A stretch of DNA of 64,000 nt, taken from Candidatus Hodarchaeota archaeon (GTDB taxonomy: Archaea; Asgardarchaeota; Lokiarchaeia; Sigyniarchaeales; SOKP01). How positions within the stretch are numbered: position 1 is the stretch's first letter; every line of letters begins with the position of its first letter. The stretch spans positions 64,001 to 128,000 of the forward strand of contig JBHLKM010000009.1 of assembly GCA_048886685.1 (NCBI GenBank), given 5' to 3'. A program made the position numbers and the translations under genes. This document shows, in pieces, positions 2,845 to 63,706 of the stretch. The notes beneath the pieces are model-generated. The model was not told where the DNA came from. It worked only from the letters and a program-made list of their open reading frames with translations, and made no database searches.

Positions 2845-2867
2845 TTCAATTTTAATATTTCTAAAAC

Positions 2868-4592: not shown

Positions 4593-4833
4593 GTCTTAAA
4601 AGATATATAAATTTGAAATAAATCTCAATTTGAACATTTATATAATTAATCAACAAATAATTAAAAAATTATGAATTTACAGAATTGAATAATAGTTTAA
4701 AAGTATAGTGAATTTTTATTAACAGATTTCATTAGAAATAGAAGAAAAAAATATTCTTGAAAATTCTTATTATCCTCACTAAATGAAAAGAAATTAATTA
4801 TTGCTATATAACCTTGTTCTATCTATAATATAT

Positions 4834-13306: not shown

Positions 13307-14869
13307 ATGAAAACTTTTGAAGAATATCTTGAGTCACTCTACTCAATGAAAAAGAATATTTGGATAGGTGACGAACTTGTTGGTCGGGATGATCCTCGAA
13401 TAAGAGGGGGGATTAATATCCTGCGCGAAACATACGACCTTGCTCACGATAAGAAATTTGAAGATCTATGTACGGCAACTTCTCACTTAACCGGAGAAAA
13501 AATTAATAGATTTTGCCATATCCACCAGAGTAAAGAGGATTTATTCAAAAAGCAAAGAATGACCAGAGTTTTATGTCACAGAGTTTCGGGTTGTATTCAA
13601 AGATGCATGGGAATAGATGCCCTTAATGCTCTTTCTGTTATTACTTATGAATGCGATCAAGCATTAGGTACGAATTATTATGACAATTTCGAAAAATTCC
13701 TAAAATACTTCCAAGAAAATGACTTAGCGGGTTCTTGTGCATCGACCGATGTTAAGGGTGATCGTTTGAAACGCCCATATCAACAGGAAAATCCAGATGC
13801 ATATTTACGGATTGTTGAAACACGAGATGATGGAATTATAGTACGCGGTGCAAAATGCTGTATCACTAATACACCTTATGTGCATGAGATAATCGCGGTT
13901 CCCTGTAGAATGATGATGCCAGATGATCATGATTATGCCGTTGCTTTTGCAATCCCAGCCGATTGGGACGGTGTGAAATTACTTGTAAGGCCTGCATATT
14001 TTCATCAACCTAAGAATGTTCCCGAGAGTATGAAACCTGCAGCTTTAGCTCTTGGTGACAGTGAAACTTTTATAATATTTGATGATGTGTTCATCCCAAA
14101 GGAGCGAGTCTTTTTAAATGGTCATGCGGATCATAAACAAACACCTTTTGCAGGATTTTTAGCATTAATGTTTGCTCATTATCATCGCCACTCTTATACA
14201 GGTTGTAAAGCAGCAATGTCAGAAGTATTAGCAAGTGCTGCCGCTTTAGTTGCAGAGTATAATGGAATTCAAGACACATCCCATGTAAGAGATAAGATTT
14301 CACATATTTTAGGAACAGCAGAATTAGTTTTTGCCGCAGGTGAATCAAGTGCGCTGCATTCTGAAAGAGCCCCTTCTGGTACTCAAGTTCCAGATGAAAT
14401 TCTCACCAATGCAGGACGTAGACTTGCAGGGGAGCAAATATATGAAGAATACAAGATCTTAGCAGATTTAGCAGGGGGATTAATGGCAACATTACCATTT
14501 CTCGATACCTTCTATAATAAAGAAGTAGGTCCATTAGCAATGAAATATATGCAAAGAAATCCAAGAGTGCCCCCAGAGAATGTTTTGAAATGTTTTAAAG
14601 GAATTGAATGCATCGGATGTTCTGATATTGCAGGTCTTTTGCAGGTTGCAGGTCTTCATGGGGGTGGATCACCCCAGATGGAAACGATTGCAATGATGGG
14701 AAGATATCCATTAGAGAAACTTAAAGATATCGCTAAATATTTGTTCGGGATTAAGAAAAGCTTAAAAAGATTTGAACGACAAGAAGATTATAAGGTAACC
14801 CCAAGGACAATGCTTGAAAAGTTTAGAAAAGCTTTAATAGCAAAACAAAAAAGGGAACAAAAAGCGTAA
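13307..14869 (+). CDS. abfD: 4-hydroxybutyryl-CoA dehydratase family (FAD, 4Fe-4S)
   Basis: GCIQRC (C-x3-C) and HRHSYTGC (H-x6-C) cluster ligands; TDVKGDR; HGGGSP. Confidence 0.8.
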   Translation: MKTFEEYLESLYSMKKNIWIGDELVGRDDPRIRGGINILRETYDLAHDKKFEDLCTATSHLTGEKINRFCHIHQSKEDLFKKQRMTRVLCHRVSGCIQRCMGIDALNALSVITYECDQALGTNYYDNFEKFLKYFQENDLAGSCASTDVKGDRLKRPYQQENPDAYLRIVETRDDGIIVRGAKCCITNTPYVHEIIAVPCRMMMPDDHDYAVAFAIPADWDGVKLLVRPAYFHQPKNVPESMKPAALALGDSETFIIFDDVFIPKERVFLNGHADHKQTPFAGFLALMFAHYHRHSYTGCKAAMSEVLASAAALVAEYNGIQDTSHVRDKISHILGTAELVFAAGESSALHSERAPSGTQVPDEILTNAGRRLAGEQIYEEYKILADLAGGLMATLPFLDTFYNKEVGPLAMKYMQRNPRVPPENVLKCFKGIECIGCSDIAGLLQVAGLHGGGSPQMETIAMMGRYPLEKLKDIAKYLFGIKKSLKRFERQEDYKVTPRTMLEKFRKALIAKQKREQKA

Positions 14870-14889
14870 TATTTCTCTCAGTTATTACC

Positions 14890-15852
14890 TTACAATATAC
14901 ATAAAACGAAAGATTGTGTTTCGGTAAACGATTCCATATGTAGACTTTTATCTTTTTTCAAAAAATCTTCAATAGTAATTCCAGTTTTAAGTATTTCATT
15001 AAATTTTGTTTCGAAGATCTGATAAATATTTCTATTTCGAGAGATATATGATCCAATTAAAATATTTGTTGGATCAAAACTTGGTTGAATAAGTTCACTA
15101 TCTGTAAGGCTAAAATTGCTAAAGCTTTCGTCTGTCACATAAATTTTAAGATTCTTAAATTCAATATTCATGGGATCAACATGTTTAGTAAGAAGTTTAA
15201 ATTCTTCACTATTTACAAGGTCTTTTACAACCTCAGAATGAAAAATAATTTGGACGTTAATAGTTTTAAGATTTTCTTTGATTCTATTCATTCCTGCTTT
15301 CATAGGTCCAGCTATTTCTTCTGGAATATTATTAAGACCATATTCTTGAATCAAATCAATTAAAGGATTGTGATATCTGATACCAATCGCAATTTTACAT
15401 TCTTTTTCAGCTAAAAATGAAGAGTAGCTCTCATCAAAATTTTTCACATCATAATTGATAAATTCAACGGGTTCTTGAGCAACTTGTTCTTCCAAATTGA
15501 AGTTTTTAATAAATGTCGCTAATGAGTTTTCACACTTATCTCTCTTTTCATCAAATTCATTTTGGAGATTCTCTATTCTTTTATTCACGAGATTTTGCCA
15601 TAATCCTAAAATAGGATTTGCGAGATGAATTTTCATTGGTCTATCATATATCTGAACAAGTTCTAAATCGCTGAGCACTGAACAGATTTTGTATCCTCGT
15701 TTTAAAGAGAGACTAAATTGATTACACACATCCTTTAAATTATCAATTCTTTTGTTGATTAGGAGATAATGGTAAATTCTTTCAATACCCTTTTCAATAA
15801 CGCCAACGGAATCAAATAATTGGCTCAGAGATAAATATTTGGTATCTTCCAT
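14890..15852 (-). CDS. TrmB-like transcriptional regulator (N-terminal wHTH)
   Basis: IYHYLL...LKDVCNQFSLSLKRGYKICSVLSDLELV then coiled coil and a C-terminal domain; 4 nt downstream of the GTPase gene. Confidence 0.6.
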   Translation of the reverse strand: MEDTKYLSLSQLFDSVGVIEKGIERIYHYLLINKRIDNLKDVCNQFSLSLKRGYKICSVLSDLELVQIYDRPMKIHLANPILGLWQNLVNKRIENLQNEFDEKRDKCENSLATFIKNFNLEEQVAQEPVEFINYDVKNFDESYSSFLAEKECKIAIGIRYHNPLIDLIQEYGLNNIPEEIAGPMKAGMNRIKENLKTINVQIIFHSEVVKDLVNSEEFKLLTKHVDPMNIEFKNLKIYVTDESFSNFSLTDSELIQPSFDPTNILIGSYISRNRNIYQIFETKFNEILKTGITIEDFLKKDKSLHMESFTETQSFVLCIL

Positions 15853-15856
15853 TAAA

Positions 15857-16387
15857 TCACCTACTATTAATCTTTTCTAATGTCAGTTCGGTAAGGACTT
15901 TAAACGCTTCATTAACATTTAAGTTTTCTTTGGCTGATATTTCAACAAAACTTGCCATTTTATTTTTTTCAGCGATCTGAATGCCATATTCTCTCGGGAC
16001 CTGCCGAGAGGTTTTAGAAAGATCAATTTTAGAACCTACTAGCATTATTGGTATAGTTCCGCCTTTTTGCCTAACAATAGTCATCCATTCTGAAATATTA
16101 TCTAGAGTAGAAGGCCGTGTTATGTCATAAAGTAGAAATGCAGCGTTTGCACCTAAGCAATATGTCGGTAAAAGGAATCTAAAGCGTTCTTCCCCTCCGA
16201 CGTCCCATATTTGAAGTTTTACTTTAGTATTATTCAACTCAATTGTTTTAACATGGAAGTCAACACCAATAGTTAATCTTTCACTAGGGTTGAAAATGTT
16301 ATAACAATAGCGTTTTGTGAATGAAGTTTTTCCAACGGATGCATCTCCAAGGAGAAGAATCTTAAAAGTGTAATCATAATGAGACAT
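15857..16387 (-). CDS. Rab-like small GTPase
   Basis: GDASVGKT, TIGVDF, WDVGGE, SKID, ISAK; no C-terminal Cys tail. Confidence 0.92.
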   Translation of the reverse strand: MSHYDYTFKILLLGDASVGKTSFTKRYCYNIFNPSERLTIGVDFHVKTIELNNTKVKLQIWDVGGEERFRFLLPTYCLGANAAFLLYDITRPSTLDNISEWMTIVRQKGGTIPIMLVGSKIDLSKTSRQVPREYGIQIAEKNKMASFVEISAKENLNVNEAFKVLTELTLEKINSR

Positions 16388-50567: not shown

Positions 50568-52244
50568 TTAAAATATTTGGGGAGATTGATATTCTCCAAA
50601 TACTTCTCGTAGTACATCACAAATTTCTTGTATAGTAGCGTATGTTTTGACGGTTTCAATCATAATTGGCATAATATTTTCAGAGGAATAAGCAACTTTT
50701 TTTAGTTGATTCAACTTTTCTTTAACGAGACTTTCATTTCGATTTTTCTTTAAATCTTTAAGAGATTCAATTATTCTGTTCTCAAAATCTTTATCGTGTT
50801 TGAATGTTTCTATTTTATGTTCCTCATCAATACGAAAACTATTTACTCCGATTACTTTATCGATACCTTTATCGATTCTGATTTGTTCCAAATATGCGTT
50901 ATTTAGAAGTTCTTGTTGAATGAATGCATTTTCAATAGCTGCTGGCATACCACCCATTTTATCTATTTTTTCAATATATTCCATAGCTTTTTCTTCTAGT
51001 TTATTTGTTAAATATTCGAGATAATAAGAACCACCTAATGGATCAGCAACATCGGCTACACCTGTCTCATATGCAAGCACTTGTTGTGTTCTTATTGATA
51101 ATCTAGCTGAATCCTCAGTTGGCAGTGATAACGCTTCGTCTGCTCCACAGGTATGAAGAGATTGAGTACCTCCCAAAATTGCCGCTAAACCTTGGAGTGC
51201 AACTCGAACAATATTAACTTGAGGTTGTTGGACTGTAAGTGACATTCCTGCTGTGTGTACATGAAATCTTAATCTAAGAGAATTAGGTTTCTTAGCGCCA
51301 AACCGATTTTTCATAACTTTAGCCCATATTCTCCTCGCAGCTCTTAATTTCGCAATTTCCTCAAAAAAGTTGTTATGCGTAGTGAAAAAGAATGATAATC
51401 TTGGAGCAAACTCATCAACATCTATCCCCCTTTTAAGAACCTCATCAACATAAGAAATACCATCAGCCATAGTAAACGCAATCTCTTGGATAGCATTACT
51501 TCCGGCTGCACGCATATGATAACCACATATACTGATTGTATTAAATAGTGGTAGATGCTTAGAACAATATTCTATTATATCTGCTACTAATCTTAAGGAT
51601 GGTTTTGGAGGAAATATATAAGCACCCCTTGCTACAAATTCTTTCAAAATATCATTTTGAACTGTACCCATTAGCTTTTTTGAATCAATTCCCTGTTTTT
51701 CACCAACAGCAATATACATTGCTAAAATAACAGCGGTTGGGGCATTTATAGTCATGCTAGTAGAGACTTCATCTAAAGGTATCCCGTCAAAAACTCTTTC
51801 AAAATCCTTTAAAGAATTTACAGTGACCCCAATTCTCCCTATTTCCCCAATACATATATTATTATCAGAATCATAGCCCATCTGCGTAGGAAGGTCAAAT
51901 GCGACAGAGAGTCCCTTTTGTCCTTGAGATATCAAAAATTTAAATCTATCATTTGTTTTCTCGGCATCAGCAAACCCTCCATACTGTCTCATTGTCCAAA
52001 TTCTACCGCGATACATATTTGGATATACTCCTCGAGTAAAGGGTGGAGTTCCTGGAAACCCTAAATCTTCAATGAAGTCTAAACTTTCAATATCCTCTGG
52101 ACTATAAACTTGTTTTAAGGGTATTCCTGAGGGTGTTTCAAATTTGTCCTTACGTTCACCTCTATCTGTAAATTTAGATAAATTATTTTCTTCCCACTCC
52201 AATCTCTTGTTTTTTATTTTTTCAAGTTCTTTTCTAGAGAACAT
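50568..52244 (-). CDS. Methylmalonyl-CoA mutase, substrate-binding (large) subunit
   Basis: WTMRQY (Tyr specificity residue), QNDILKE..ARG (Arg), GYH, DPLGGSY; no B12-binding domain. Confidence 0.9.
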   Translation of the reverse strand: MFSRKELEKIKNKRLEWEENNLSKFTDRGERKDKFETPSGIPLKQVYSPEDIESLDFIEDLGFPGTPPFTRGVYPNMYRGRIWTMRQYGGFADAEKTNDRFKFLISQGQKGLSVAFDLPTQMGYDSDNNICIGEIGRIGVTVNSLKDFERVFDGIPLDEVSTSMTINAPTAVILAMYIAVGEKQGIDSKKLMGTVQNDILKEFVARGAYIFPPKPSLRLVADIIEYCSKHLPLFNTISICGYHMRAAGSNAIQEIAFTMADGISYVDEVLKRGIDVDEFAPRLSFFFTTHNNFFEEIAKLRAARRIWAKVMKNRFGAKKPNSLRLRFHVHTAGMSLTVQQPQVNIVRVALQGLAAILGGTQSLHTCGADEALSLPTEDSARLSIRTQQVLAYETGVADVADPLGGSYYLEYLTNKLEEKAMEYIEKIDKMGGMPAAIENAFIQQELLNNAYLEQIRIDKGIDKVIGVNSFRIDEEHKIETFKHDKDFENRIIESLKDLKKNRNESLVKEKLNQLKKVAYSSENIMPIMIETVKTYATIQEICDVLREVFGEYQSPQIF

Positions 52245-52269
52245 ATTCTCATTTCCTCCTTAAATTTAA

Positions 52270-52623
52270 TCAATTTGGTGAAAAAACATAATTATATATT
52301 TCTTTCCCATCTAGATCATCACAAATTTTAGTATAGATGGGTTTTAGTTCCATTCCAGTTTTTAAATTTTCTTGAATTGTCAATTGGCCAAGAGCTTTTA
52401 CTCCGTTTTCAAATTCAACAACTCCTAAGGCATATGAAGAATTTTTCCTAAATTCAGCAGGAGGTGCTTTTAAGATTGTAAAAGTAAGGAGTTTACATGT
52501 TCCTGAAGCATTTATATTTTCAAATGTACTATTTTTACATTTCAAACATCTTATATGAGATTTATGCTGTAAATACCCACAGTTTTTACATTTTATCCAT
52601 GTTTCTTTTTCTACTTTTTCCAT
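52270..52623 (-). CDS. DUF35 / ChsH2-like Zn-ribbon OB-fold protein
   Basis: CKNCG...CLKC followed by an OB fold. Confidence 0.85.
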   Translation of the reverse strand: MEKVEKETWIKCKNCGYLQHKSHIRCLKCKNSTFENINASGTCKLLTFTILKAPPAEFRKNSSYALGVVEFENGVKALGQLTIQENLKTGMELKPIYTKICDDLDGKEIYNYVFSPN

Positions 52624-52714
52624 TGTTGATTCATCTTTTCAAAGAAAAATTATTGTAAAATTCTTATTAATAATAATATAAACTCAATAAAATTCATTTC
52701 GGAGAACTTAGTTT

Positions 52715-53266
52715 TTATAATTCTGCTGATAGAGTTTTGAATTTTTTATACAAGGCCTCAATAATTGCGTTAAATGCCTCAATAACGCCATTCCCCGTTT
52801 TAGCTGACGTTATATAATACCCAAGAAAATTATATTTACTTACTATTTCTTGGATATCAGAATCATCAATGTTATCTTCATCAACTAAATCTACTTTATT
52901 TGCGAACAATACAATAGGAATATTTCCACAATATTTTAAAATTTCTTTATACCAATCAGGAATATGATTGAAACTCTCTTCACCAAGTTTGTTTTCTTCT
53001 AGACTATATACAATTATGGCTGCTTCACTTCTCTTATAAAAAGAAGGTCGTAAGAAATGAAAGGTATCTTGTCCTGCTATATCCCAAAATTGTAATTTAA
53101 TTTTGTCCCCATCTATTTCTTTAACATACGTTGATAGTTGAGCCCCAATTGTCTTAATATATTCCTTTTCAAAGTAACTATGTGTAAATTTTTGAATTAA
53201 TGAAGTTTTACCTACCTGCCCGTCACCAATCACGGTGATTTTGAAAATAAAGCTTATATCATTCAT
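52715..53266 (-). CDS. Rab-like small GTPase (cluster paralog 1)
   Basis: GDGQVGKT, TIGAQ, WDIAGQ, NKVD, TSAK. Confidence 0.92.
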   Translation of the reverse strand: MNDISFIFKITVIGDGQVGKTSLIQKFTHSYFEKEYIKTIGAQLSTYVKEIDGDKIKLQFWDIAGQDTFHFLRPSFYKRSEAAIIVYSLEENKLGEESFNHIPDWYKEILKYCGNIPIVLFANKVDLVDEDNIDDSDIQEIVSKYNFLGYYITSAKTGNGVIEAFNAIIEALYKKFKTLSAEL

Positions 53267-53445
53267 AGAATTTTGAATAAAGATCAGAATAATAAGTTAA
53301 ATAAATCTTATATGATGTAAGATTAGATTTATTATGTTATAAAATTTTTGAATATTCTCGTCAATAACCTAAAAGAATCTAGAACAATCAATAATTATCA
53401 AAGCTCAGTAATTCTTCTTTAAACTGAATAATCAATCTTTTAATT

Positions 53446-54003
53446 CTACAGATTATCAGATAATGATTTAAACTTATCATATAACTCATCTATCAATGTA
53501 TTAAATGCTGTAAGTACGCCCTTCCCTGTTTTTGCTGATGTTAAGTAGTACCCCATAAAATTATTCTCTTCAACTATTTTTTTGATAGCTGAATGGTCTA
53601 TAGTATCTTCGTCAACCAGATCAACTTTATTTGCAAATACAACTATCGGAACATCTCCACAATGTTTTACAATTTCCTCATGCCAAGTTGATATGGATTT
53701 AAAACTCTCGTCCCCAAGTTCAGTTTCCTCAAGACTATATACAATAATAGCAGCTTTACTGTTTTTAAAAAAAGAGGGACGTAAAAAGTGAAAAGTATCC
53801 TGCCCCGCTATGTCCCAAAATAATAGTCTGATTTTATCTCCTTTTATTTCCTTATTATACACTGAAAACTGTGCTCCTATTGTCTTAACATAATCCTTCT
53901 TAAATGATCCTTGAGTGAACTTCTTAATAAGGGAAGTTTTTCCAACCATTCCATCACCGATAACCGTTACTTTGAATCGAAACCTACGTCCTTCCTCACT
54001 CAT
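53446..54003 (-). CDS. Rab-like small GTPase (cluster paralog 2)
   Basis: GDGMVGKT, TIGAQF, WDIAGQ, NKVD, TSAK. Confidence 0.92.
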   Translation of the reverse strand: MSEEGRRFRFKVTVIGDGMVGKTSLIKKFTQGSFKKDYVKTIGAQFSVYNKEIKGDKIRLLFWDIAGQDTFHFLRPSFFKNSKAAIIVYSLEETELGDESFKSISTWHEEIVKHCGDVPIVVFANKVDLVDEDTIDHSAIKKIVEENNFMGYYLTSAKTGKGVLTAFNTLIDELYDKFKSLSDNL

Positions 54004-54156
54004 AGAATCTTAAAAGAAATAATTTGTGTATTTATTCTAGTTAAAAAATTATATTTAAACTAAGATCAGTTATTTTTTAATATAAAATTTTGGTTTCTGA
54101 TTAAAATAAACTGAAAAATAGACAATTTTATATTTAAATTAAAAAAAATTAAAAAA

Positions 54157-54192
54157 AAGTTTGGATTATTTGAGATCTTTTAATCCAAACTT
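54157..54192 (-). terminator. 12-bp perfect hairpin followed by U-tracts
   Basis: aagtttggatta-N12-taatccaaactt; A-runs to the left give poly-U on the minus strand. Confidence 0.6.
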
Positions 54193-54273
54193 GAATTTTT
54201 TTGGATTTAAAAGATAATCTCCTATCGAATATTTCCAATCATCTTTTTTCTTCTTTTTCTTCGTTTTTTTCAA
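54166..54273 (-). CDS. Putative Lys-rich micropeptide (35 aa from TTG; start uncertain)
   Basis: MKKTKKKKKKDDWKYSIGDYLLNPKKFKFGLKDLK*; GGAGGT overlaps the TTG and lies 7 nt before an in-frame ACG. Confidence 0.4.
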   Translation of the reverse strand: MKKTKKKKKKDDWKYSIGDYLLNPKKFKFGLKDLK

Positions 54274-54299
54274 CCTCCATTAAATTTTTTGATAACTAA

Positions 54300-54392
54300 T
54301 TATTTTATTATACGATTAATAAACTCCTTATGTTCTTCTAAACCGTTCTTTATCTTAATCCTCTCAATTCTCTCTAATTTTTTGTTTTTCAT
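54300..54392 (-). CDS. Putative micropeptide (30 aa)
   Basis: MKNKKLERIERIKIKNGLEEHKEFINRIIK* with GGGGAGGG 9 nt upstream. Confidence 0.5.
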   Translation of the reverse strand: MKNKKLERIERIKIKNGLEEHKEFINRIIK

Positions 54393-54437
54393 TATTTTTC
54401 GCCCTCCCCTTATCATTTAGATATATATCAAAAAAAT

Positions 54438-54464
54438 GGAGGGGGAAAATTTAGGTCCCCCTCC
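54438..54464 (-). terminator. GC-rich 9-bp hairpin followed by a U-tract
   Basis: ggaggggga-N9-tccccctcc, then ATTTTTTT on the minus strand. Confidence 0.6.
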
Positions 54465-54544
54465 CCCTGATTTTATTTCTCCCTGACTTTTCTACTTCGG
54501 TTTGTCGGATGAATTGAATCAGCGTGAAGATGACAGAATTAATT

Positions 54545-54790
54545 TTAATAATTTCCGAAATTCCTGTAATTTATACTTCTTCTGATGTTCTCTATAGGAA
54601 TTTGTTCTTCTAAATACTTAGGATTATATTTAGCTTTCTTCAATAATTTCAATAAAGCTTTTTTAACTGGTTTCTCCTCTGCTTTTACTCGAACTATTGT
54701 ATAATCTTCTTCAATAGCAGGGAGCTCTTCTAATATAATTACATCTTCTAATACCTCTAGTTCCTTTTTCTTAATTAAAACTTGGACCAT
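54545..54790 (-). CDS. NPxYxEExI-family microprotein A (81 aa)
   Basis: GGAGGTG upstream of ATG 54790; MVQVLI...YNPKYLEEQIPIE. Confidence 0.75.
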   Translation of the reverse strand: MVQVLIKKKELEVLEDVIILEELPAIEEDYTIVRVKAEEKPVKKALLKLLKKAKYNPKYLEEQIPIENIRRSINYRNFGNY

Positions 54791-54832
54791 TTTATAAACC
54801 ACCTCCAATTCATGTTTCTAAACTATTGTAAA

Positions 54833-55087
54833 TTAAAAAACCCTAAAAATATTGAATTTGGAATTAGCAATTATATCTGAGGTATATAATTTTTCTTTTG
54901 TATCTTTTAGTGGAATTACTTCTTCGAAGTATCTAGGATTTTGATTCTTGAATAATTCAAATAGTTCAATTTGTTTTTTAATTTGCTCAATATCTTTTTG
55001 TTCTTCTTTAGAAGTTTTTCCCGAAAGAACTATATATAGATCTTTAAGTTCAATAATGGTATCTTCATTTACTATTACTTGTCTCAT
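54833..55087 (-). CDS. NPxYxEExI-family microprotein B (84 aa)
   Basis: MRQVIV...QNPRYFEEVIPLKD...SKFNIFRVF*. Confidence 0.75.
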   Translation of the reverse strand: MRQVIVNEDTIIELKDLYIVLSGKTSKEEQKDIEQIKKQIELFELFKNQNPRYFEEVIPLKDTKEKLYTSDIIANSKFNIFRVF

Positions 55088-55155
55088 TTTTTTCACACTC
55101 TTTTTTTCCTATAAGATTACTTAGATCAAGGTTTAATTAATAGTTTGATTTCGCA

Positions 55156-55171
55156 AAGTTCAAATGGAATT
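55156..55171. promoter_or_regulatory. Degenerate AACTYY-N4-RRAGTT box
   Basis: AAGTTC-AAAT-GGAATT, 13 nt upstream of a minus-strand TATTAATTAAA. Confidence 0.55.
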
Positions 55172-55313
55172 TAAGACTTGTTTTAGACTTTTATCAACTT
55201 TTCTTAAAAAAAATCTCTGTTTAATATGAGTTTAAATCTAGGTAGTTGCTATAGATTTTAGAGCCTATGAGTAGAATGGTCTAGCAATCGGTAAAGGTTC
55301 AACTCATTAGGTT

Positions 55314-55634
55314 TTAAAAATTTCTTGACCAATATTCCTCGTAAGTTAAATTGTTGGGTATATCTCTATTACCCCTATAAATTCGAGGAACAGCTTTAGA
55401 ATCTATTAATATCTTGATGAATTTATAGTTAGCTAAATGATCGAGAGCATCCTTAAATTGATAATAAGACTTATAATCTTGTACTTTACCCGTGATATCT
55501 ATCAAATCATAATCAAAGAGTAATTGATCAATATTCGGAAATTGATCCTGAAGCCAATTGTCTCTACAATCTTCAATAATTTTTATAGCATATTCAAAGT
55601 TGCTAGAGTGAGTTTTTGAAGAAAAACTTGTCAT
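55314..55634 (-). CDS. Hypothetical protein (106 aa from ATG 55634)
   Basis: MTSFSSKTH...FKDALDHLANYKFIKI...; possible winged-helix pattern. Confidence 0.6.
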   Translation of the reverse strand: MTSFSSKTHSSNFEYAIKIIEDCRDNWLQDQFPNIDQLLFDYDLIDITGKVQDYKSYYQFKDALDHLANYKFIKILIDSKAVPRIYRGNRDIPNNLTYEEYWSRNF

Positions 55635-55778
55635 ATTCGCATAAATGATAAAATACTTTGTTTTTAAGGATTTCAAAAACAGAAAATTTTTATATGAATT
55701 AGTCGAATTACGAAAAGTAAATCTAATCACTAAAATAAATACATAAAAATGAGAGATTAAAAAAATTATTTTATACTT

Positions 55779-55955
55779 CTAAAAAACACTAAAGAGATCA
55801 TATTTAGATCCTACACAAGCATGAATTTGGTCTTTCGCTTCTTTTAGATGGATAGCTTCCTCAAAATATCTTGGGTTTAAATCTCCAAGAAGTGCTTGAT
55901 TTTCTTCAACTTTAGGTCGTTTCATTATCATTATTTTTTGATAAGTTTGGGTCAT
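55779..55955 (-). CDS. NPxYxEExI-family microprotein C (58 aa, not in the ORF track)
   Basis: MTQTYQKIMIMKRPKVEENQALLGDLNPRYFEEAIHLKEAKDQIHACVGSKYDLFSVF*; homologous to B, with a homologous promoter. Confidence 0.8.
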   Translation of the reverse strand: MTQTYQKIMIMKRPKVEENQALLGDLNPRYFEEAIHLKEAKDQIHACVGSKYDLFSVF

Positions 55956-56029
55956 TTTTTATAAACACTTTTTCGGTTTTTTTATTAAGAATAATTAGAG
56001 CAAGGTTTAATATATAGTTTAATTCTATG

Positions 56030-56045
56030 AACTCTGAGTGGAGTC
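56030..56045. promoter_or_regulatory. AACTYY-N4-RRAGTT box
   Basis: AACTCT-GAGT-GGAGTC, 13 nt upstream of a minus-strand TATATATTAAA. Confidence 0.65.
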
Positions 56046-56121
56046 TTAGATTCTATTTAGATCATCCCTTAATTCTCCAGAATTTTACATTTTATACGTC
56101 CAGATATAATGTTCATTTTTG

Positions 56122-56137
56122 AACTCTAATTAGAGTT
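56122..56137. promoter_or_regulatory. AACTYY-N4-RRAGTT box (perfect 16-bp palindrome)
   Basis: AACTCTAATTAGAGTT, 10 nt upstream of the plus-strand TATATAAA of the 56211 gene. Confidence 0.7.
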
Positions 56138-56210
56138 TGGATCAAAATATATAAATAAACCCTTTTCATATTATTATTATAAGTAATATTTATTGGTAAT
56201 TGGATGAATT

Positions 56211-58733
56211 TTGGTTCCATCTTGTAATTATCCCCCTGACGAGATTTTAAATCCTGTAATTGGTAAGCCTAATTATGAGTATATTATTCTGTGGATATTG
56301 AGTAATAATGAAATATGCTCATGGGCAGATTTAAAAGAAAAAGTGAATAGATCAACGCTTTCTAATTATTTACGTGACCTTAAGCGTAATGGATATGTTT
56401 TAAAAAGTGATTTCAATCAATATAAAATCACATCTAAAGGAAGGGAAAGATATTACGAATTAGGACAAGCCAAGAAGGGAGGAAGGAACTTAAGTTTTCC
56501 TCCTAAGGTAATTCTCGAAAAAAGGAATTATGACCATACGATCCTTTGGATGACCTATAACAATAATTACTGTAAGTGGGCAGATTTTCTTGAAGAACCT
56601 CTTTCTATTAATCAATCTTCCTTATCAAAGAATATGAATAAATTAATGGAAAAAAATTTTGTAATAAAAGAAGAAAAGGAATATAGAATTACTCGATTGG
56701 GAAAATCGGAATATTCTAAAATGCTAACCTATTATGATCTAGACAGACAGTCGATTTTAGAAGAAGAAAGCAAAAGAATTTCTGATTTAACACAAAAAAC
56801 ACTAAATTTCTTCGCAAAATTTGAAATTATTGAAAGAGATATTCAATTTCGATTCCTAAATAGTGTTCTAAGGTTAGATTATGAAAAAATTAAAACCGTT
56901 TTAAGAGAGGAGGAGGATTTTCATAAAATACTGCTGTTCCTTTCAATTAATCATCCAAATGATTATCCTAAATATGTATCACCTGAAGAATTCTCTGAAA
57001 AATATGGAATTAAAAAAACTACTCTTGATTATTATATTGATGAAATTGTAGAGAATCAAATTTTTCCAATAAAATTTTTTAAATTGGTGGTGCTCCCAAA
57101 TAAATTCTATTATTTCCAATCAGATGAAAAAGTCGAGATGATGCTTAGGATTATTACAGAGGAGCATATTACAAAGTTTACCTATCTAAATAAGCTTTTT
57201 GAGGGCAAATCAGATTTAATTCTCCCTCTGAATATGAGTTCTACGGTAAACGCTATTTTAGAAGAAGCTTGCCAAAATGTATTTGATGAAGGATTAAAAA
57301 ATTCATTAAGAAAATTATTACCTGAATATATCAATTACTTAGCATACAAAATCGAAAAAGAAAAGAAGTTGGTTGGTGTTTCTGATAAATTGGAAGGAAT
57401 TATTTGGCAGAACATTCCTGAAATAATTCAATCAGACATTTACAAAACTTCTCAATATCAATTTATAAGTGAGAGTGAAATGAATTATTATTTAGATACC
57501 TCAATATTAGAAATATTACAGCCTTACCTAGCTTTCTGGTTTAAGCAGGAAGAGTTAAATTTAAAAATCCAAGAGTACTTAAAATCGAAAGAATATGATA
57601 AGGCTTTAAAATTGGATGAATTAGGTAAGGTTTTTACTTATTCTAAATCGAAGATAAAGAATTTGGATCTCATTATTGTTAAAGGGATTATTCTTTGCCA
57701 TTTGAATAGAAATAGAGAATCGATAGATTTTCTAATGGATAATGTAGATTTATCTATTATTAATAAAGAAGATGAGATATATGCACCATATCTTTTTGTG
57801 TTAGCTTTTTCATATATGACTCTTGGAGATATTAAAAACGCTCTGAATATGGCATATAAAGCAATAGAAATATTTCCTAAAATACCTCTTTCTCATATTT
57901 TAAAGGGACTTGTACTTGGTTATAATAGTATTTATAATTTCGATGCAGAAAAGGCAGATAAAGAAAATGGGATAAGTGATATAGATAAAGCTATTAATTT
58001 AGAATCAAATAAATTCAACAAAGCAAGATATTATCAGTTAAAGAGCCAAATCTTATTAGAATTGAATAACTATGAAAATGCTTTAGAATCGATTGATAAC
58101 GCACTTGAATTAAATCCTAAAACTCTAGATTTGTATAATTCTAAATTTAGGATTTTGAATTATTTTGATAAGTTCTATGAAATAATAGCTATATTGGATA
58201 AATTACTAATTGATTTTCCTGAGTGGGAAAAGAATCTTAAAATTAAAAAAATATACATGCTCAAAGAAATGAAAAATATTGAAGAAGGCCTAGAGATTAT
58301 CAATGAATTAATCGAAAAATATCCTGAAGATAATAATCTTCTTCTTAATAAGATATATTGGTTACAATATTTAGATGAAAAAGAAGAGGTAATAACAACT
58401 ATAGAGAAGCTTATACAAGAAAATCCCAAGGTAGGAATATACCGTGATACTTATGGAGAGATTTTAATGAATTTTGAGGAATATGAAAAAGCCATAAAGG
58501 AATTCTTAAAAACGATAGAATTAGCTAGTGATGATTGGTATATTAATCAAACCTATATAAAGTTGGGAATATGTTATAAGGAACTTGAAGACTATGATTT
58601 AGCAACTGAATATCTTATGAAAGGTCAAGAATATACAAACAAATGCTTTTGTGATCTTGAAACAAAAAGAAGATGGATGGCAATTGTTAGTCTCTATTTG
58701 GCAGAAATTGAACAACTAGAAGCCGATTTTTAA
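56211..58733 (+). CDS. Tandem winged-HTH / TPR-repeat regulator (long form)
   Basis: Two repeats PP..I...NY..IILW...NN..C.WAD...STLS..L..L...G.V......Y.IT..G; third HTH-like segment; C-terminal TPRs (DTYGEIL...EEYEKAI, IKLGICY). Confidence 0.8.
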   Translation: MVPSCNYPPDEILNPVIGKPNYEYIILWILSNNEICSWADLKEKVNRSTLSNYLRDLKRNGYVLKSDFNQYKITSKGRERYYELGQAKKGGRNLSFPPKVILEKRNYDHTILWMTYNNNYCKWADFLEEPLSINQSSLSKNMNKLMEKNFVIKEEKEYRITRLGKSEYSKMLTYYDLDRQSILEEESKRISDLTQKTLNFFAKFEIIERDIQFRFLNSVLRLDYEKIKTVLREEEDFHKILLFLSINHPNDYPKYVSPEEFSEKYGIKKTTLDYYIDEIVENQIFPIKFFKLVVLPNKFYYFQSDEKVEMMLRIITEEHITKFTYLNKLFEGKSDLILPLNMSSTVNAILEEACQNVFDEGLKNSLRKLLPEYINYLAYKIEKEKKLVGVSDKLEGIIWQNIPEIIQSDIYKTSQYQFISESEMNYYLDTSILEILQPYLAFWFKQEELNLKIQEYLKSKEYDKALKLDELGKVFTYSKSKIKNLDLIIVKGIILCHLNRNRESIDFLMDNVDLSIINKEDEIYAPYLFVLAFSYMTLGDIKNALNMAYKAIEIFPKIPLSHILKGLVLGYNSIYNFDAEKADKENGISDIDKAINLESNKFNKARYYQLKSQILLELNNYENALESIDNALELNPKTLDLYNSKFRILNYFDKFYEIIAILDKLLIDFPEWEKNLKIKKIYMLKEMKNIEEGLEIINELIEKYPEDNNLLLNKIYWLQYLDEKEEVITTIEKLIQENPKVGIYRDTYGEILMNFEEYEKAIKEFLKTIELASDDWYINQTYIKLGICYKELEDYDLATEYLMKGQEYTNKCFCDLETKRRWMAIVSLYLAEIEQLEADF

Positions 58734-58741
58734 AAAAACAC

Positions 58742-59284
58742 TTAGGTTAAAACCTTGGATTTATTATACAATTCATTAATAATAATATTAAAAGCCTCAT
58801 GAACACCTTGCCCTGTTTTTGCTGAAGTTAAGTAATATCCTAAAAAACCTTGTTCTTCAACAATTTTTTGAATCGGAGTATCATCCAAATTATCTTCATC
58901 AATTAAGTCGACTTTATTAGCAAAAAGAATTATTGGGATTTCTCCACAGAATTTTTTAATATTCTCATACCAATTGGTTATATGCTCAAAACTTCGTTTA
59001 CCTAACTCATTTTCCTCAAGACTATAAACAATAATTGCTGCTCCGCTTTCCTTATAAAATGAAGGTCGTAGAAATAGGAAATCATCTTGACCGGCTATAT
59101 CCCAGAAGATCAATCGAATCTCATCTCCCTCTATTTCTTTTTCATATTTAGAGAATTGGGCACCTATGGTCTTAACATAATCTTTCTCAAATGAACTCTG
59201 AGTAAACTGTTTAATCAATGAAGTTTTACCTACTTGTCCATCTCCTATGACGGAAATTTTAAATCGAAATTGTGCAGCAGTCAT
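58742..59284 (-). CDS. Rab-like small GTPase (cluster paralog 3)
   Basis: GDGQVGKT, TIGAQF, WDIAGQ, NKVD, TSAK. Confidence 0.92.
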   Translation of the reverse strand: MTAAQFRFKISVIGDGQVGKTSLIKQFTQSSFEKDYVKTIGAQFSKYEKEIEGDEIRLIFWDIAGQDDFLFLRPSFYKESGAAIIVYSLEENELGKRSFEHITNWYENIKKFCGEIPIILFANKVDLIDEDNLDDTPIQKIVEEQGFLGYYLTSAKTGQGVHEAFNIIINELYNKSKVLT

Positions 59285-59507
59285 TTACTTTTTTGGAGAA
59301 ATCACTATTTCATGTTTTATTTAATAGTAGATTAGGTTTTTTGTAATTTAAAATTTTAGTTATTAAAAAAAACCTAGTTGATACAAATTTAGTGATTAAA
59401 TATTAAAAGATTTGAATTTCATTTAATGAAATTAGTTAAATATCAACTAAAATACAATTAAAATTAAAGATTTGATAAAAATTAAAAAAGAAGAATAAAA
59501 AAAGAAT

Positions 59508-59588
59508 TTATTTACGTAAATCCTTAAAAGCCCAATTTTGGAAATGATTATTTATATTTATTAATCCTTTATTCGCATTTTTTCTCAT
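59508..59588 (-). CDS. Putative micropeptide (26 aa, not in the ORF track)
   Basis: MRKNANKGLININNHFQNWAFKDLRK*; GAGGG 7 nt upstream; box-associated promoter. Confidence 0.6.
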   Translation of the reverse strand: MRKNANKGLININNHFQNWAFKDLRK

Positions 59589-59660
59589 TTTTTTTCCCTC
59601 AATAATAGGTTCTTATTAATTTTAATATAGATTGACAACTATATTTAGTTTAACTTCGTA

Positions 59661-59676
59661 AACTCCATGTGAAGTT
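59661..59676. promoter_or_regulatory. AACTYY-N4-RRAGTT box
   Basis: AACTCC-ATGT-GAAGTT, 13 nt upstream of a minus-strand TAAATATA. Confidence 0.65.
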
Positions 59677-59841
59677 CGAATTTAACGCGAAGGGCTTCTC
59701 AGTTTTGTCAGAATTATTTAAAATGAATATGTATTAATATCTTAAAGCTCTTTAATTTTAATCTTGTTGAATGAAGTATCCATACCTTTTTCCCCAATTC
59801 ATCCAATTCCTCTTCACTAAGTATTTAGTTTTTACTGCATG

Positions 59842-59857
59842 AACTTTAACCAAAGTT
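59842..59857. promoter_or_regulatory. AACTYY-N4-RRAGTT box
   Basis: AACTTT-AACC-AAAGTT, about 90 nt before the 59945 gene. Confidence 0.6.
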
Positions 59858-59944
59858 ATATAGTATTAAAAACTATTATACTATAAGAAGACTATAAGAA
59901 TTTAGTATGCTAAACATTAAGAAAACTCTTTCAAAAATGATATC

Positions 59945-61849
59945 ATGAGTCATATAAATTATCCACCTAAAGAAATTTATAATCCTCCCGTATTAGAGAA
60001 AAAAAATTTTGAGCTTATCATTCTTTGGATGCTATATAATAATGAAGAATGCGAGTGGGCTAATTTTACTCAAGAACCCCTTGAACTTCGGTTATCTACT
60101 CTCTCAAAATATCTTTCATTATTAAAGGGGAAGGGATATGCAGAGAATATTTCAAGAGGGCTTTATAAAATTACTTCAGAAGGCAAAAAGAGATATCTTG
60201 AATTATCACAGGCAAAGGAAAAAGAAAGAACTCTAAGCTATCCCCCTGCTATCATTACAAGAAGAAGAAATTATGATCATTGGATTCTTTGGATGGTTTA
60301 TAACAATAACTACTGCAAATGGTCGGATTTTATTGAAGAAAATTCACCTGTAAGAATTAATCAATCATCCTTATCTAAAAATATGAATATATTAATCGAT
60401 AAAGGATTTATAGAAAAAGAAGAGAAGAAATATAGAATCACCCGATCAGGTAAAGTGGAGTATTCTAGAGTATTACAAGAATATGATTTAGATAGACAAT
60501 CAATTTTGGAGGAAGAAAGTAAGCGAATTGAAGAGATTACAATGAAGACTATAAAATTTTTCAATAAATATGAAATTGAAAATAAGGACATACAATTTAG
60601 ATTACTCAACAATATGCTGAAATTGGATTATACCAGGGTTGAAGCAATGCTCACAGATGAACAAGATTTTAACAAAATCTTACTTTTTATCTCAATTAAT
60701 CATCCAAGTCAATATCCTAATTATATTTCTGTAGATGGTTTCTCGAAAATTTATGGAATTAAAGATTCAAAATTGGATTATTATGTTGATGAAATTATTG
60801 AAAATGAGATTTTTCCCGTTAAATTTTTTAAAATAATTGTACAACCAGATGTCCATTATTATTTCCAAGAGAATGAAAGATTAGAAATAATGCTTCGAGC
60901 AATCACAGAAGATCATATCACCAAATTCACATATTTAAATAAATTATTTTCGAGACCATTTGACATAAGAAGTACAGTGGATGATATATTAGAAGATATT
61001 TGTGAGGTATTATTTCACGAGGATTTAAAAGAATCCTTACACAAATTTTTACCAAAATATATTAATTATTTAGCCTATAAAATTGAAGCTAAAGTTGAGC
61101 TGAAAGAGACTTATGATAAATTAGAAGGAATTATTTGGCACAATATGATAGACATATTTGAAACAAGAAATATTGAAGAATTACAAGAAGATTACAGAGT
61201 AGAAATCAAGAAAATTGATAAAAAGATTGAGTCAAATCCAGAGGACCTTGATTTATATAACTTAAAGATAAGAATTTTGATTTATTACAATCAATTCGAT
61301 GAGGTACTGAGCTTATTAGATGAAATGTTAGAAATTTTCCCGAAAGATGAATTAGATGTAAAGATGAAAAAGGCATCTGTATTGAGAAGGATGCAAGATG
61401 TAAGTAAGGGTTTAGAAATAATTAATGAGTTAATTGAAAAATACCCTAAAAACAATGACCTTGTGAGTTATAAAGCTTATTGGCTTCAATATTTAGATCG
61501 AAAGGAAGAATCTCTCAGCATAATTCATGATCTTGTTGAACTTATTCCTGAAAATGGAATGTACCATGACACTTATGGAGAAATTCTAATGTATTTTGAG
61601 GAAAATGAAAAAGCTATAAATGAATTCCTTAAAGCGATAGAATTAGCGGGTGATGAATGGTATATTCATCAAACCTATATTAAGCTAGGAATCTGTTATA
61701 AAGAAGTTCAACAATTGGAACGTGCGCTTGAGTACCTAACTAAAGGGAAGAAATTAACAGAAAAGATTTCAATTGACGCCGAAACTAAACAAAAATGGAT
61801 CACAATTGCGAATCTCTTTCTTTTAGAATTAGAGCAATTAGAAGAATAA
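59945..61849 (+). CDS. Tandem winged-HTH / TPR-repeat regulator (short form)
   Basis: Collinear paralog of 56211-58733 lacking about 200 aa of the TPR region. Confidence 0.8.
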   Translation: MSHINYPPKEIYNPPVLEKKNFELIILWMLYNNEECEWANFTQEPLELRLSTLSKYLSLLKGKGYAENISRGLYKITSEGKKRYLELSQAKEKERTLSYPPAIITRRRNYDHWILWMVYNNNYCKWSDFIEENSPVRINQSSLSKNMNILIDKGFIEKEEKKYRITRSGKVEYSRVLQEYDLDRQSILEEESKRIEEITMKTIKFFNKYEIENKDIQFRLLNNMLKLDYTRVEAMLTDEQDFNKILLFISINHPSQYPNYISVDGFSKIYGIKDSKLDYYVDEIIENEIFPVKFFKIIVQPDVHYYFQENERLEIMLRAITEDHITKFTYLNKLFSRPFDIRSTVDDILEDICEVLFHEDLKESLHKFLPKYINYLAYKIEAKVELKETYDKLEGIIWHNMIDIFETRNIEELQEDYRVEIKKIDKKIESNPEDLDLYNLKIRILIYYNQFDEVLSLLDEMLEIFPKDELDVKMKKASVLRRMQDVSKGLEIINELIEKYPKNNDLVSYKAYWLQYLDRKEESLSIIHDLVELIPENGMYHDTYGEILMYFEENEKAINEFLKAIELAGDEWYIHQTYIKLGICYKEVQQLERALEYLTKGKKLTEKISIDAETKQKWITIANLFLLELEQLEE

Positions 61850-61915
61850 AGCACAAGGATTTTTGGTAACTTAACAGTAAACTTATCAAAATAATATAAA
61901 AAAAGGATAGAGACC

Positions 61916-63706
61916 CTAACTTTTTTCTACTAATTGTTCTAACTCTTCGATTTTGTCAGATAGATAATTAATTCCTTTTTGCCAGAATGAAGCATCCTTT
62001 AAGTTGATACCAATTTCAGATAATATTTCTTCAGGTGTTAATGAACCTCCAACAGAAAGGAGTTTAATAAATTTTGGGACAAATTTTTCTTTTTGCTCAA
62101 GATATAATTGATATATTGAGATTACCAACAGATTAGACATGTTATATGCATACACATAGAAAGGTACTTGTAAAAAATGGTGCACAACAAAACAGTAATT
62201 GGCGTAATCTTCTCTAATGTTACTAATAGAGTTGCCAAACATTAATTCCATTTCTCTAACAAAAGTATCTTTAATTTCTTCTGTTGAGGGTAATTTCTCC
62301 TCCAGTAAATTATGAATACTTTTTTCAAACCTATAGAAAGCATTTTGTCTATGGGAAGTACTGAACTTTGATTCAATGAAATTACTTAACAAAGAAATCT
62401 TTTCTTCTCTCGATAAATTTGTATTCATTAAATGGTCAAAAATTAAAATTTCATTGAAAATTGAGGCAATTTCAGCCATAACCAAAGAAATTCCTATATT
62501 TATGAAGTTTTGATTTTTTAAATTATAATATGCGTGAAATGCATGGCCAAGTTCATGAGATAATGTTCTTAATGAATCGATTGTACCAGTAAAATTTACA
62601 AATACGAACGGATAATGCTTCAGTTTCCCATTGGAACAAAAGGCACCACGATTTTTTCCAATTCTGGGAGTGACATCAATATGATTAGATAAAACCATTC
62701 TTTCTATTATCTCTTTAAATTCTGGAAAAAATCTTTCATCAGCATCTTTAATAAGTTCTAAATTTTCCTTATAGGAATAATTTTTTGTTATTTGACCAAT
62801 CGGGACATAAATATCCGACATATGGAGTTCAGGGAGATTTAAGATTTTTTTCTTTAAGTTGTAATATTTCTCCACGATAGAATAACTTTTTGTGGTTACT
62901 TCTCCTAAAATTTCAACACTCTCATCACTAACTTCATTTTCGAGATTTCTTCGTGATATCGGTGTATTGAAATTCTTTTTTTTGCATTCTAAATCCCAGC
63001 TTTTCAAGGTATTATTAAAAGTATGAGTGAAAATCATTTCATACTCCTTATATTTGGAAACAATTGCACTTAAGGCTCTAAATCGAAGATCTTTATCCTG
63101 GTGGTACATAAAAGAAAAGACCTCTGCTTCAGTTAACTTCCTCATTTTTCCTTCTACTTCAAAATCGAAAATAAAACTGCTTTTTAATTCATTATAAAGT
63201 TTTATGAATGCTTTAGCACCTGTAATATCTTTCATTAAAACTATTTGTTCTTCTTCTTCCGAAAGTTGATGTTTTTTTTTCAATCTGTTAAATTTGAGAG
63301 CATGAGAATAATTGATAAGTTCTGGAGCATTTTTTAACTCGTTAAATTTGTGTTCTGAAATCAAATTCAATTCTAAATTAAAAAACAATAATTTTTCCTG
63401 AAATTTAGCTTTATAATCTTCTATCTTTGAGCGAAATGATTTTACATCATCATTTAATGAGTTAATTGAATATTCCAAACTTGAATAACGATCTAAGTAA
63501 TATATTTGTTCAGATATTTGTTCATATTCCTTATACCATTCTAATAATTGCTTTGGAGTAAGTAAAGGATCCCTTATCTTTCCTTTGACTTTCTTATAAA
63601 AATTTTCGACTGACTTTTCTAATTCTTTAAGATCCTTATCAATTGAAGGATCATCAATGCTTTCGTAGAAGTCGGTTAAATCCCATTTAATGATTTCTTC
63701 TGCCAT
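61916..63706 (-). CDS. pepF: Oligoendopeptidase F (M3B)
   Basis: WDLTD.Y, GK.RGAF, HELGHAFH, AEIASIFNE, HF...FYVYAY. Confidence 0.9.
   Translation of the reverse strand: MAEEIIKWDLTDFYESIDDPSIDKDLKELEKSVENFYKKVKGKIRDPLLTPKQLLEWYKEYEQISEQIYYLDRYSSLEYSINSLNDDVKSFRSKIEDYKAKFQEKLLFFNLELNLISEHKFNELKNAPELINYSHALKFNRLKKKHQLSEEEEQIVLMKDITGAKAFIKLYNELKSSFIFDFEVEGKMRKLTEAEVFSFMYHQDKDLRFRALSAIVSKYKEYEMIFTHTFNNTLKSWDLECKKKNFNTPISRRNLENEVSDESVEILGEVTTKSYSIVEKYYNLKKKILNLPELHMSDIYVPIGQITKNYSYKENLELIKDADERFFPEFKEIIERMVLSNHIDVTPRIGKNRGAFCSNGKLKHYPFVFVNFTGTIDSLRTLSHELGHAFHAYYNLKNQNFINIGISLVMAEIASIFNEILIFDHLMNTNLSREEKISLLSNFIESKFSTSHRQNAFYRFEKSIHNLLEEKLPSTEEIKDTFVREMELMFGNSISNIREDYANYCFVVHHFLQVPFYVYAYNMSNLLVISIYQLYLEQKEKFVPKFIKLLSVGGSLTPEEILSEIGINLKDASFWQKGINYLSDKIEELEQLVEKS

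Follow-up and report, generated by a model that had tools for sequence, protein, structure and literature searches.

Why should an Asgard archaeon place genes for Rab-like GTPases and very small open reading frames (ORFs), twice in succession, beside a divergent gene for a large winged helix-turn-helix (wHTH) protein that ends in tetratricopeptide repeats (TPRs)? The arrangement lies at 52715-61849 of the window, by which we mean the whole 64,000-nucleotide stretch analysed here, on contig C9 of a 4.4 Mb Lokiarchaeia (Promethearchaeia) assembly. An earlier note had proposed that these regulators bind palindromes in the divergent gaps and drive the microprotein genes. Comparative evidence from a weight matrix, an exact promoter pattern, clade-specific flanks and recognition-helix residues indicates that they very probably do bind these boxes and drive the microprotein genes as a regulon. 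The features are listed below by window position (aa, amino acids; RBS, ribosome-binding site; BRE, B recognition element).

52715-53266, minus strand: Rab/Ras-like small GTPase 1, 183 aa, of the regulator-linked clade, with its own box-free promoter (Pfam Ras, E 1.7e-42; tree; promoter).
53446-54003, minus strand: Rab/Ras-like small GTPase 2, 185 aa, same clade as GTPase 1 (Pfam Ras; promoter; tree).
54166-54264, minus strand: D-type micropeptide gene, 32 codons, C-terminal FGLKDLK, T-run after it (profile match, E 1e-10).
54300-54392, minus strand: 30-aa basic micropeptide with a strong RBS, similar to E-type peptides (sequence).
54545-54790, minus strand: C-type microprotein, 81 aa, apparently the regulator family's oldest partner (comparison and structure prediction).
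54833-55087, minus strand: B-type microprotein, 84 aa, with an NPRYFEE motif (sequence comparison).
55136-55171, minus strand: degenerate putative clade-I operator (55156-55171; 28.7 bits), with the BRE/TATA of the B-C unit at 55136-55146.
55314-55634, minus strand: conserved 106-aa ORF with no family assigned, in place in 5 close relatives (neighbourhood comparison).
55779-55955, minus strand: A-type microprotein, 58 aa, with an LGDLNPRYFEE motif (same-promoter paralogues on three other contigs).
56010-56045, minus strand: putative clade-I operator (56030-56045), 9 nt upstream of the A gene's BRE/TATA (56010-56020; 44.8 bits).
56122-56137, no strand: perfectly palindromic box a short way upstream of the putative BRE/TATA of regulator 1 itself (identical in 6 orthologous loci).
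56211-58733, plus strand: regulator 1, 840 aa, clade I, with three winged helices, a helical linker and a long TPR region (Pfam wHTH/TPR; tree).
58742-59284, minus strand: Rab/Ras-like small GTPase 3, 180 aa, G1-G5 intact, C-terminal cysteine absent (Pfam Ras; alignment; tree).
59508-59588, minus strand: E-type micropeptide, 26 aa, preceded by an RBS and followed by a T-run (several genomes have orthologues, and contig C2 a paralogue).
59641-59676, minus strand: putative clade-II operator (59661-59676), 9 nt upstream of the E peptide's BRE/TATA (59641-59651; 36.8 bits).
59842-59857, no strand: second clade-II-type box, at regulator 2's promoter (box scan and locus comparison).
59945-61849, plus strand: regulator 2, 634 aa, clade II, with wHTHs at 20-90, 106-180 and 239-310, a linker and TPRs at 414-633 (Pfam; structure model).
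61916-63706, minus strand: M3B oligoendopeptidase, PepF-like, HELGH intact (Pfam; clade distribution).

The order described by the earlier note, with GTPase and small-ORF genes on one side and a divergent regulator on the other, was confirmed for both copies from gene coordinates and Pfam matches, as were RBS-like leaders before the small ORFs at 55779-55955, 54833-55087, 54545-54790, 54300-54392, 59508-59588 and 54166-54264. The two halves are indeed paralogues, but not recent ones (regulators 1 and 2 are 45% identical in their shared part), and the regulators, which had been credited with two winged helices, have three in the regulator 2 model. Each divergent gap does hold two boxes of the form AACTYY-N4-RRAGTT (56030-56045 and 56122-56137; 59661-59676 and 59842-59857); they are not copies of a single palindrome, however, the four boxes being two clade-specific operator variants. 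Missing from that description were a fifth, degenerate box (55156-55171), which precedes 54833-55087, and two genes that recur with the module, the 106-aa ORF (55314-55634) and PepF (61916-63706). After the box at 59842-59857 the window has no conserved peptide gene, but relatives do have one there.

In shuffled divergent gaps only 0.02 boxes were expected per gap (P <= 0.0003). Three of the window's boxes, on the minus strand, lie 9 nt upstream of a BRE/TATA, and on contigs C7, C10 and C11, far from any regulator, A-microprotein paralogues have the same box at the same spacing. A position weight matrix trained on other genomes only gave 12 sites of at least 22 bits in the window genome and none of at least 17 bits in its shuffle; 8 of these 12 precede ORFs of 24-84 aa, one of which is a ubiquitin-like gene. 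An exact 35-nt promoter pattern occurred 54 times in 26 of 119 genomes of the window's Lokiarchaeia family, compared with 0 occurrences of the reversed control. Thirty of these promoters were read: about 19 head an ORF of 22-30 aa, 9 of these having no regulator within 1.5 kb, and others precede genes of 70-90 aa or a ubiquitin-like or histidine-kinase-like gene.

The GTPase-linked regulators fall into clades I, II and III (the last being two sister-level branches in the FastTree regulator tree), and in the divergent promoter of each the box has a flank particular to that clade: TCYAAGACT for clade I (regulator 1), TTCGAACTT for clade II (regulator 2) and TCGGAAYT for clade III. Because the clades differ at residues 55/56 of the wHTH1 recognition helix and in its wing, and the recognition helix of wHTH2 is invariant, we infer that wHTH2 would read the core common to all clades, and wHTH1 the flank particular to each. 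A site just upstream of the BRE is an activator position, and the placement of the box therefore fits activation. Archaeal activators recruit TBP or TFB (PMC11705074). The box at 56122-56137, at regulator 1's own promoter, is likely to be an autoregulation site. As to the chance, raised by the earlier note, that homologous regulators lack these partners, we found that homologues elsewhere carry the box and small ORFs, and those of clades I-III the GTPase as well.

The proteins of 210-280 aa encoded opposite clade III regulators (L010, L011, L017 and L024; G000:C11:8919-9659 and C4:2803-3438) have N-terminal signal-like hydrophobic stretches and no Pfam match. There is also a further box-headed unit, with genes of 70-93 aa and 57-62 aa that are often joined by a short peptide (L087, L104, L105, L115); its copy in the window genome (G000:C7:78500-78900) apparently has no normal start codon.

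It is close to certain, judging from patterns of conservation, that the tiny ORFs are real genes for cytoplasmic microproteins. For the coding test ORFs were picked by promoter position alone, with no amino-acid selection, and 47 of 51 first ATGs so chosen were open for 22 codons (background 22%). Forty-two promoter-selected ORFs were 22-30 aa long, with a T-run after 36 of them, and mismatches between similar ORF copies at codon positions 1/2/3 numbered 62/68/124. By family, pN/pS (nonsynonymous to synonymous differences) was 0.30-0.62 in frame, a measure that is partly circular because members were chosen by amino-acid pattern; the F family was not separable from shifted frames. We distinguished families A, B and C (58-92 aa), D, E, F, G and H (22-30 aa) and J (56-99 aa, with a D-like ending). 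A hydrophobic-[NH]-P-x-x-[YF] motif was present in 27 of 68 promoter-selected ORFs versus 0.7% of random small ORFs. The short peptides are basic, several of the 58-92 aa products are acidic in their N-half, and the C protein is predicted, at low confidence, to be disordered in its N-half and helical in its C-half. That the peptides have no hydrophobic signal core, as the earlier note had remarked, was borne out by 9-residue hydropathy for 47 of 52 short ORFs (median best value 0.56; 5 above 1.6, conserved families contributing one borderline case). The window's D gene (54166-54264) starts with ACG where its orthologues have ATG, and is therefore possibly decaying.

We rejected the peptides as attenuator leaders of the GTPase genes, which have their own conserved promoter, many peptide genes moreover having no GTPase downstream. 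Class III (prepilin-type) signal peptides, prompted by a K-G after the basic start, were rejected as no hydrophobic stretch follows. The N-half of D bears a weak resemblance to a PCNA box; it has no Gln and is not the best-conserved part of the peptide. GC-rich hairpins were seen between microprotein genes (window 54430-54470, L001, L003, L004, L043), followed by T-runs in the window; as an Rfam search of 52000-62000 gave zero matches, no known RNA accounts for the one near 54430-54470. J-type microproteins adjoin a box-free 296-aa AbrB/MazE-like regulator (L132-L138, L142), and L128/L129 hold a 296-aa CxxC protein with a D/J-motif C-terminus. J-type microproteins also adjoin E1/E2/JAB genes like those at the C11-type ubiquitin-like loci. 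In these loci (G000:C11:1-2800, L112, L130, L131) a ubiquitin-like gene whose product ends in GG closely follows a regulator-like ORF, a clade-II-like box separating the two, and E2, E1 and JAB genes come next; the C11 ORF is cut by the contig end and in relatives is about 460 aa long, apparently without the TPR end.

The AlphaFold2 model of regulator 2 (predicted local distance difference test, pLDDT, 82; predicted template-modelling score, pTM, 0.42) has winged helices at 20-90, 106-180 and 239-310, joined by a helical linker to TPRs at 414-633. TPR families were matched in 61 of 61 family members, and Pfam matches to the DNA-binding part were HTH_34, HTH_45 and MarR. The regulator was present in 100 of 124 genomes of the window's Lokiarchaeia family, in 1 of 24 other Lokiarchaeia searched and in none of the 13 genomes searched from the sister family, and a phylum sample had it in 30 of the 39 genomes from that family, the 160 others yielding one match, to the TPR part only. 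Among the genomes searched it is a multi-copy family nearly confined to one Lokiarchaeia family. In the ESM Atlas neither the regulator N-part nor the C protein had a match above 0.82.

Long regulator forms of 840-1010 aa, including those of other genera and a paralogue on contig C5, have no clade GTPase nearby, and in 15 of 22 further regulator genes, mostly such GTPase-free long forms, the first divergent gene encodes a C-type or C-like microprotein. The GTPase-linked regulators form one branch inside the long forms (support 99, FastTree), in trees that are quick IQ-TREE and FastTree ones with a root that depends on one long branch. Because GTPase-free forms keep the C pairing and the GTPase-linked regulators are a single branch, the older unit looks like a regulator with a C microprotein of 70-92 aa, to which the GTPase clade, PepF and the 22-30 aa peptides would have come later. 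TPR residues D542 and E546, which we take from TPR consensus numbering to face the groove, are conserved, including in GTPase-free outgroups.

Opposite distant wHTH-TPR relatives (L117, L121, L124, L155) lies an operon that encodes a PIN/NYN-type RNase together with a HerA (DUF87) ATPase, the latter fused in one operon to a PD-(D/E)xK nuclease; this is a possible undescribed defence or mobile-element module. These operons hint at a stress or defence origin and, because distant relatives face them, the trigger of the window's system would probably be stress or a change of state. PADLOC gave only weak winged-helix matches for the window regulators, so the module is not a catalogued defence system. 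A family of TPR proteins of 600-690 aa was seen near regulators in 21 of 56 loci (e.g. L014, L016, L018, L020-L023, L025, L026), and window 9595-11631 resembles this widely expanded type.

The window genome holds about 75 small GTPases, so the GTPase neighbourhood needs a control. A GTPase of the linked clade lies within 6 kb of the regulator in 39 of 56 loci, compared with about 0.02 expected, and only 3 of the 56 hold another small GTPase. Regulator-less genomes mostly have 0-1 copy of the clade (45 of 47), and GTPase and regulator copy numbers correlate (rho 0.87; 0.74 among regulator-positive genomes), kin genomes not being independent. In the GTPase tree the sister of the linked GTPases is a single-copy GTPase encoded elsewhere in the genome; members divergent from clade I regulators and members divergent from clade II regulators form separate branches with moderate support (84 and 94). 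The pairing is kept in divergent, convergent and co-oriented geometries. The G1-G5 motifs, including the switch I Thr and switch II Gln, are conserved in 59 aligned clade members, and C-terminal prenylation cysteines are absent in all three window GTPases. This distribution makes a functional tie between GTPase clade and regulator probable; direct contact between the two proteins is a more tentative proposal, somewhat short of an even chance. The single-copy sister GTPase (G000:C12:101954-104916) is clustered with TBP, second GTPase, V4R-like and thioredoxin-like genes, which, the GTPases excepted, were named from sequence appearance.

The PepF-like protein has Peptidase_M3 and M3_N domains with HExxH present, falls under the pepF equivalog cut-off and is closest to M3_fam_3 (NCBIfam). 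Its clade occurs in 36 of 149 genomes, all of them regulator-positive, and adjoins the regulator in at least 22 genomes, beside both clade I and clade II regulators. PepF could clear the peptides.

Taken together, we favour a lineage-specific transcription circuit with microprotein feedback and GTPase input, a reading that we hold to be evenly balanced as a whole. The regulators, with their three wHTHs and TPRs, would in all likelihood bind the box and switch on transcription from the BRE/TATA next to it, in front of short genes, both locally and genome-wide, with the second site controlling the regulator's own promoter. The products, almost surely cytoplasmic microproteins, many of which share the hydrophobic-[NH]-P-x-x-[YF] motif and conserved C-termini, may in turn occupy the TPR groove and so adjust the regulator in an intracellular feedback loop, with PepF clearing the short ones; both this step and TPR binding by at least one microprotein family come slightly below an even chance. 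The nucleotide-dependent input would come from a dedicated Rab-like GTPase that joined later and was duplicated along with the regulators, its functional link being the well-favoured part of this step and contact the doubtful one. The constant pairing of C with the regulator, the common motif and the conserved D542/E546 favour microproteins as ligands. A Rab-like GTPase that directly switches a transcription factor restrained by its own short-lived, peptidase-cleared microproteins would have no described counterpart, and we consider this full form of the circuit unlikely.

A number of observations weigh against the feedback circuit. Where one regulator has an E peptide beside it, another of 95% identity has a D peptide in that position, and one regulator clade drives at least 5 peptide families, many of them distant from any regulator, so that the short peptides form no one-to-one receptor/pheromone pairs; swapped and very diverse, they look more like outputs than like specific ligands. 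Opposite clade III regulators lie genes for secreted proteins of 240-280 aa instead of peptides, and the D/J motif also ends proteins without a box, several of them beside an AbrB-like regulator, as well as a 296-aa protein. The GTPase promoters are conserved but box-free, and outgroup regulators have no GTPase nearby, so the GTPase is not essential to the function of the regulator fold. The link between PepF and regulator may be inherited gene order, and genome counts are not independent, the genomes being kin. In an alternative reading the regulator would be an ordinary activator, its microproteins effectors on another target (an enzyme, the ribosome, the GTPase, or a replication or ubiquitin-system protein) and its TPR region a sensor of something else, perhaps the GTPase. 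Such an output-only regulon, to which we give roughly one chance in three, would account for peptide swapping beside near-identical regulators and many peptide families per clade, for scattered copies with strong RBSs and terminators, for reuse of the D/J motif without a box and fused to a larger protein, and for the inclusion of a ubiquitin-like gene, a histidine-kinase-like gene and secreted proteins. It sits less well with the C-type microproteins, which are the first divergent gene across the regulator tree and, unlike the 22-30 aa peptides, shift in sequence type with the regulator subgroup. The D/J motif, moreover, turned up only in the two genera with the most regulators, with 65 of 66 genomes positive, which counts against outputs alone but does not settle the matter.

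Cell-to-cell signalling of an RRNPP-like or leaderless kind, in which peptides are exported, re-imported and sensed by the TPRs while PepF resets the system, would fit the union of an HTH-type domain with TPRs, the divergent regulated small genes, the linked oligopeptidase and peptides with basic N-termini and conserved C-termini, and leaderless signal peptides are known in Firmicutes (PMC10518010). Even so, we think it improbable, given the 47 of 52 short ORFs with no hydrophobic core, the want of any transporter among the recurrent neighbours of regulator loci and of one-to-one receptor-peptide pairs, and several products of 58-92 aa with an acidic N-half. Passive co-duplication, with GTPase and PepF lying beside regulators through history and with no functional tie, is to our minds just as improbable: the box-free GTPase promoters, the common gene order of kin genomes and the outgroup regulators that manage without GTPase and PepF agree with it, but the pairing persists through several geometries (divergent, convergent and co-oriented), among about 75 GTPases it is this one clade that expands, and that only in the presence of regulators, and another small GTPase stands in only 3 of 56 loci.

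The favoured circuit was compared with known systems, above all the RRNPPA regulators (Rgg/SHP, PlcR/PapR, NprR/NprX, Rap/Phr, AimR/AimP), in which the N-terminal HTH is of XRE type; HTH_3 was absent from the 25 commonest Pfam families of our regulator members. RRNPPA receptors consist of an N-terminal HTH or three-helix bundle and a TPR region, with an adjacent exported propeptide (PMC9765709). The Asgard module resembles them in its N-terminal DNA-binding part and C-terminal TPRs, in adjacent small genes of 20-120 aa that are often receptor-controlled, in multi-copy repertoires and in the link to an oligopeptidase. It differs in its three predicted winged helices where those receptors have one HTH, in the absence of an export signal, in the many peptide families that belong to each receptor clade (also distant ones), in a dedicated small GTPase and in archaeal BRE/TATA promoters. 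No homology to Rap, Rgg, NprR, PlcR, PrgX or AimR was found among 56 PDB sequence matches, the top 50 Foldseek matches or NCBIfam, which gave generic TPR proteins only. Because the tests of DNA-binding fold, homology and export signal fail, the family is not an RRNPPA member, although it may work like one inside the cell; the earlier note's view of an analogue rather than a homologue of RRNPP agrees with the missing homology match and the different DNA-binding fold.

Small GTPases are paired with TPR effectors in MglA-SgmX (Myxococcus) and Rac-p67phox. There too a Ras-family GTPase is genetically tied to a TPR protein, but the TPR partner is not a transcription factor, and for the Asgard pair binding is a proposal. 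RopB-type leaderless peptides are hydrophobic and about 8-10 aa long. Leaderless communication peptides (PMC10518010) resemble ours in being small, free of a signal sequence and encoded beside an HTH-TPR regulator; they act between cells, whereas the Asgard ones are 22-92 aa long and charged, with no export evidence. Ptr2 and TFB-RF1 (cited in PMC11705074) likewise combine winged-helix binding with an operator at a fixed short distance upstream of BRE/TATA; compared with these activators, the Asgard regulator is much larger, with tandem wHTHs and TPRs, and its regulon is mostly microproteins. The role of Asgard Rab-like GTPases such as Thor-Rab has been stated as unknown, with membrane roles proposed (PMC10933270); the window clade shares the Ras/Rab fold motifs and the absence of C-terminal cysteines with Thor-Rab, but in the window it is tied to a transcription regulator and not to roadblock/longin genes. 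A literature search that did not reach most subscription journals found no paper describing the system.

These results give one clade of Asgard Rab-like GTPases a specific and testable context, in gene control, and define a Lokiarchaeia transcription-factor family with an operator code. They also uncover at least 8 families of 22-92 aa genes, mostly overlooked by gene callers. As the proteins are soluble, the operator defined and the peptides of synthetic size, in vitro work is possible without culture of the host. If peptides do bind the TPRs, archaea would have evolved peptide-controlled TPR regulators independently of Bacillota, and if the GTPase-switch circuit is true, a eukaryote-like GTPase would be wired straight to gene expression; since the family is limited to one Lokiarchaeia family, this says little directly about the eukaryote ancestor.

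Elsewhere in the window, 1111-6552 holds three tandem thiamine-diphosphate (acetolactate-synthase-like) paralogues of about 575 aa each. At 13307-16387 a 4-hydroxybutyryl-CoA-dehydratase-like gene, a TrmB-like gene and an unrelated small GTPase follow one another, and this same block adjoins a regulator module in L140.

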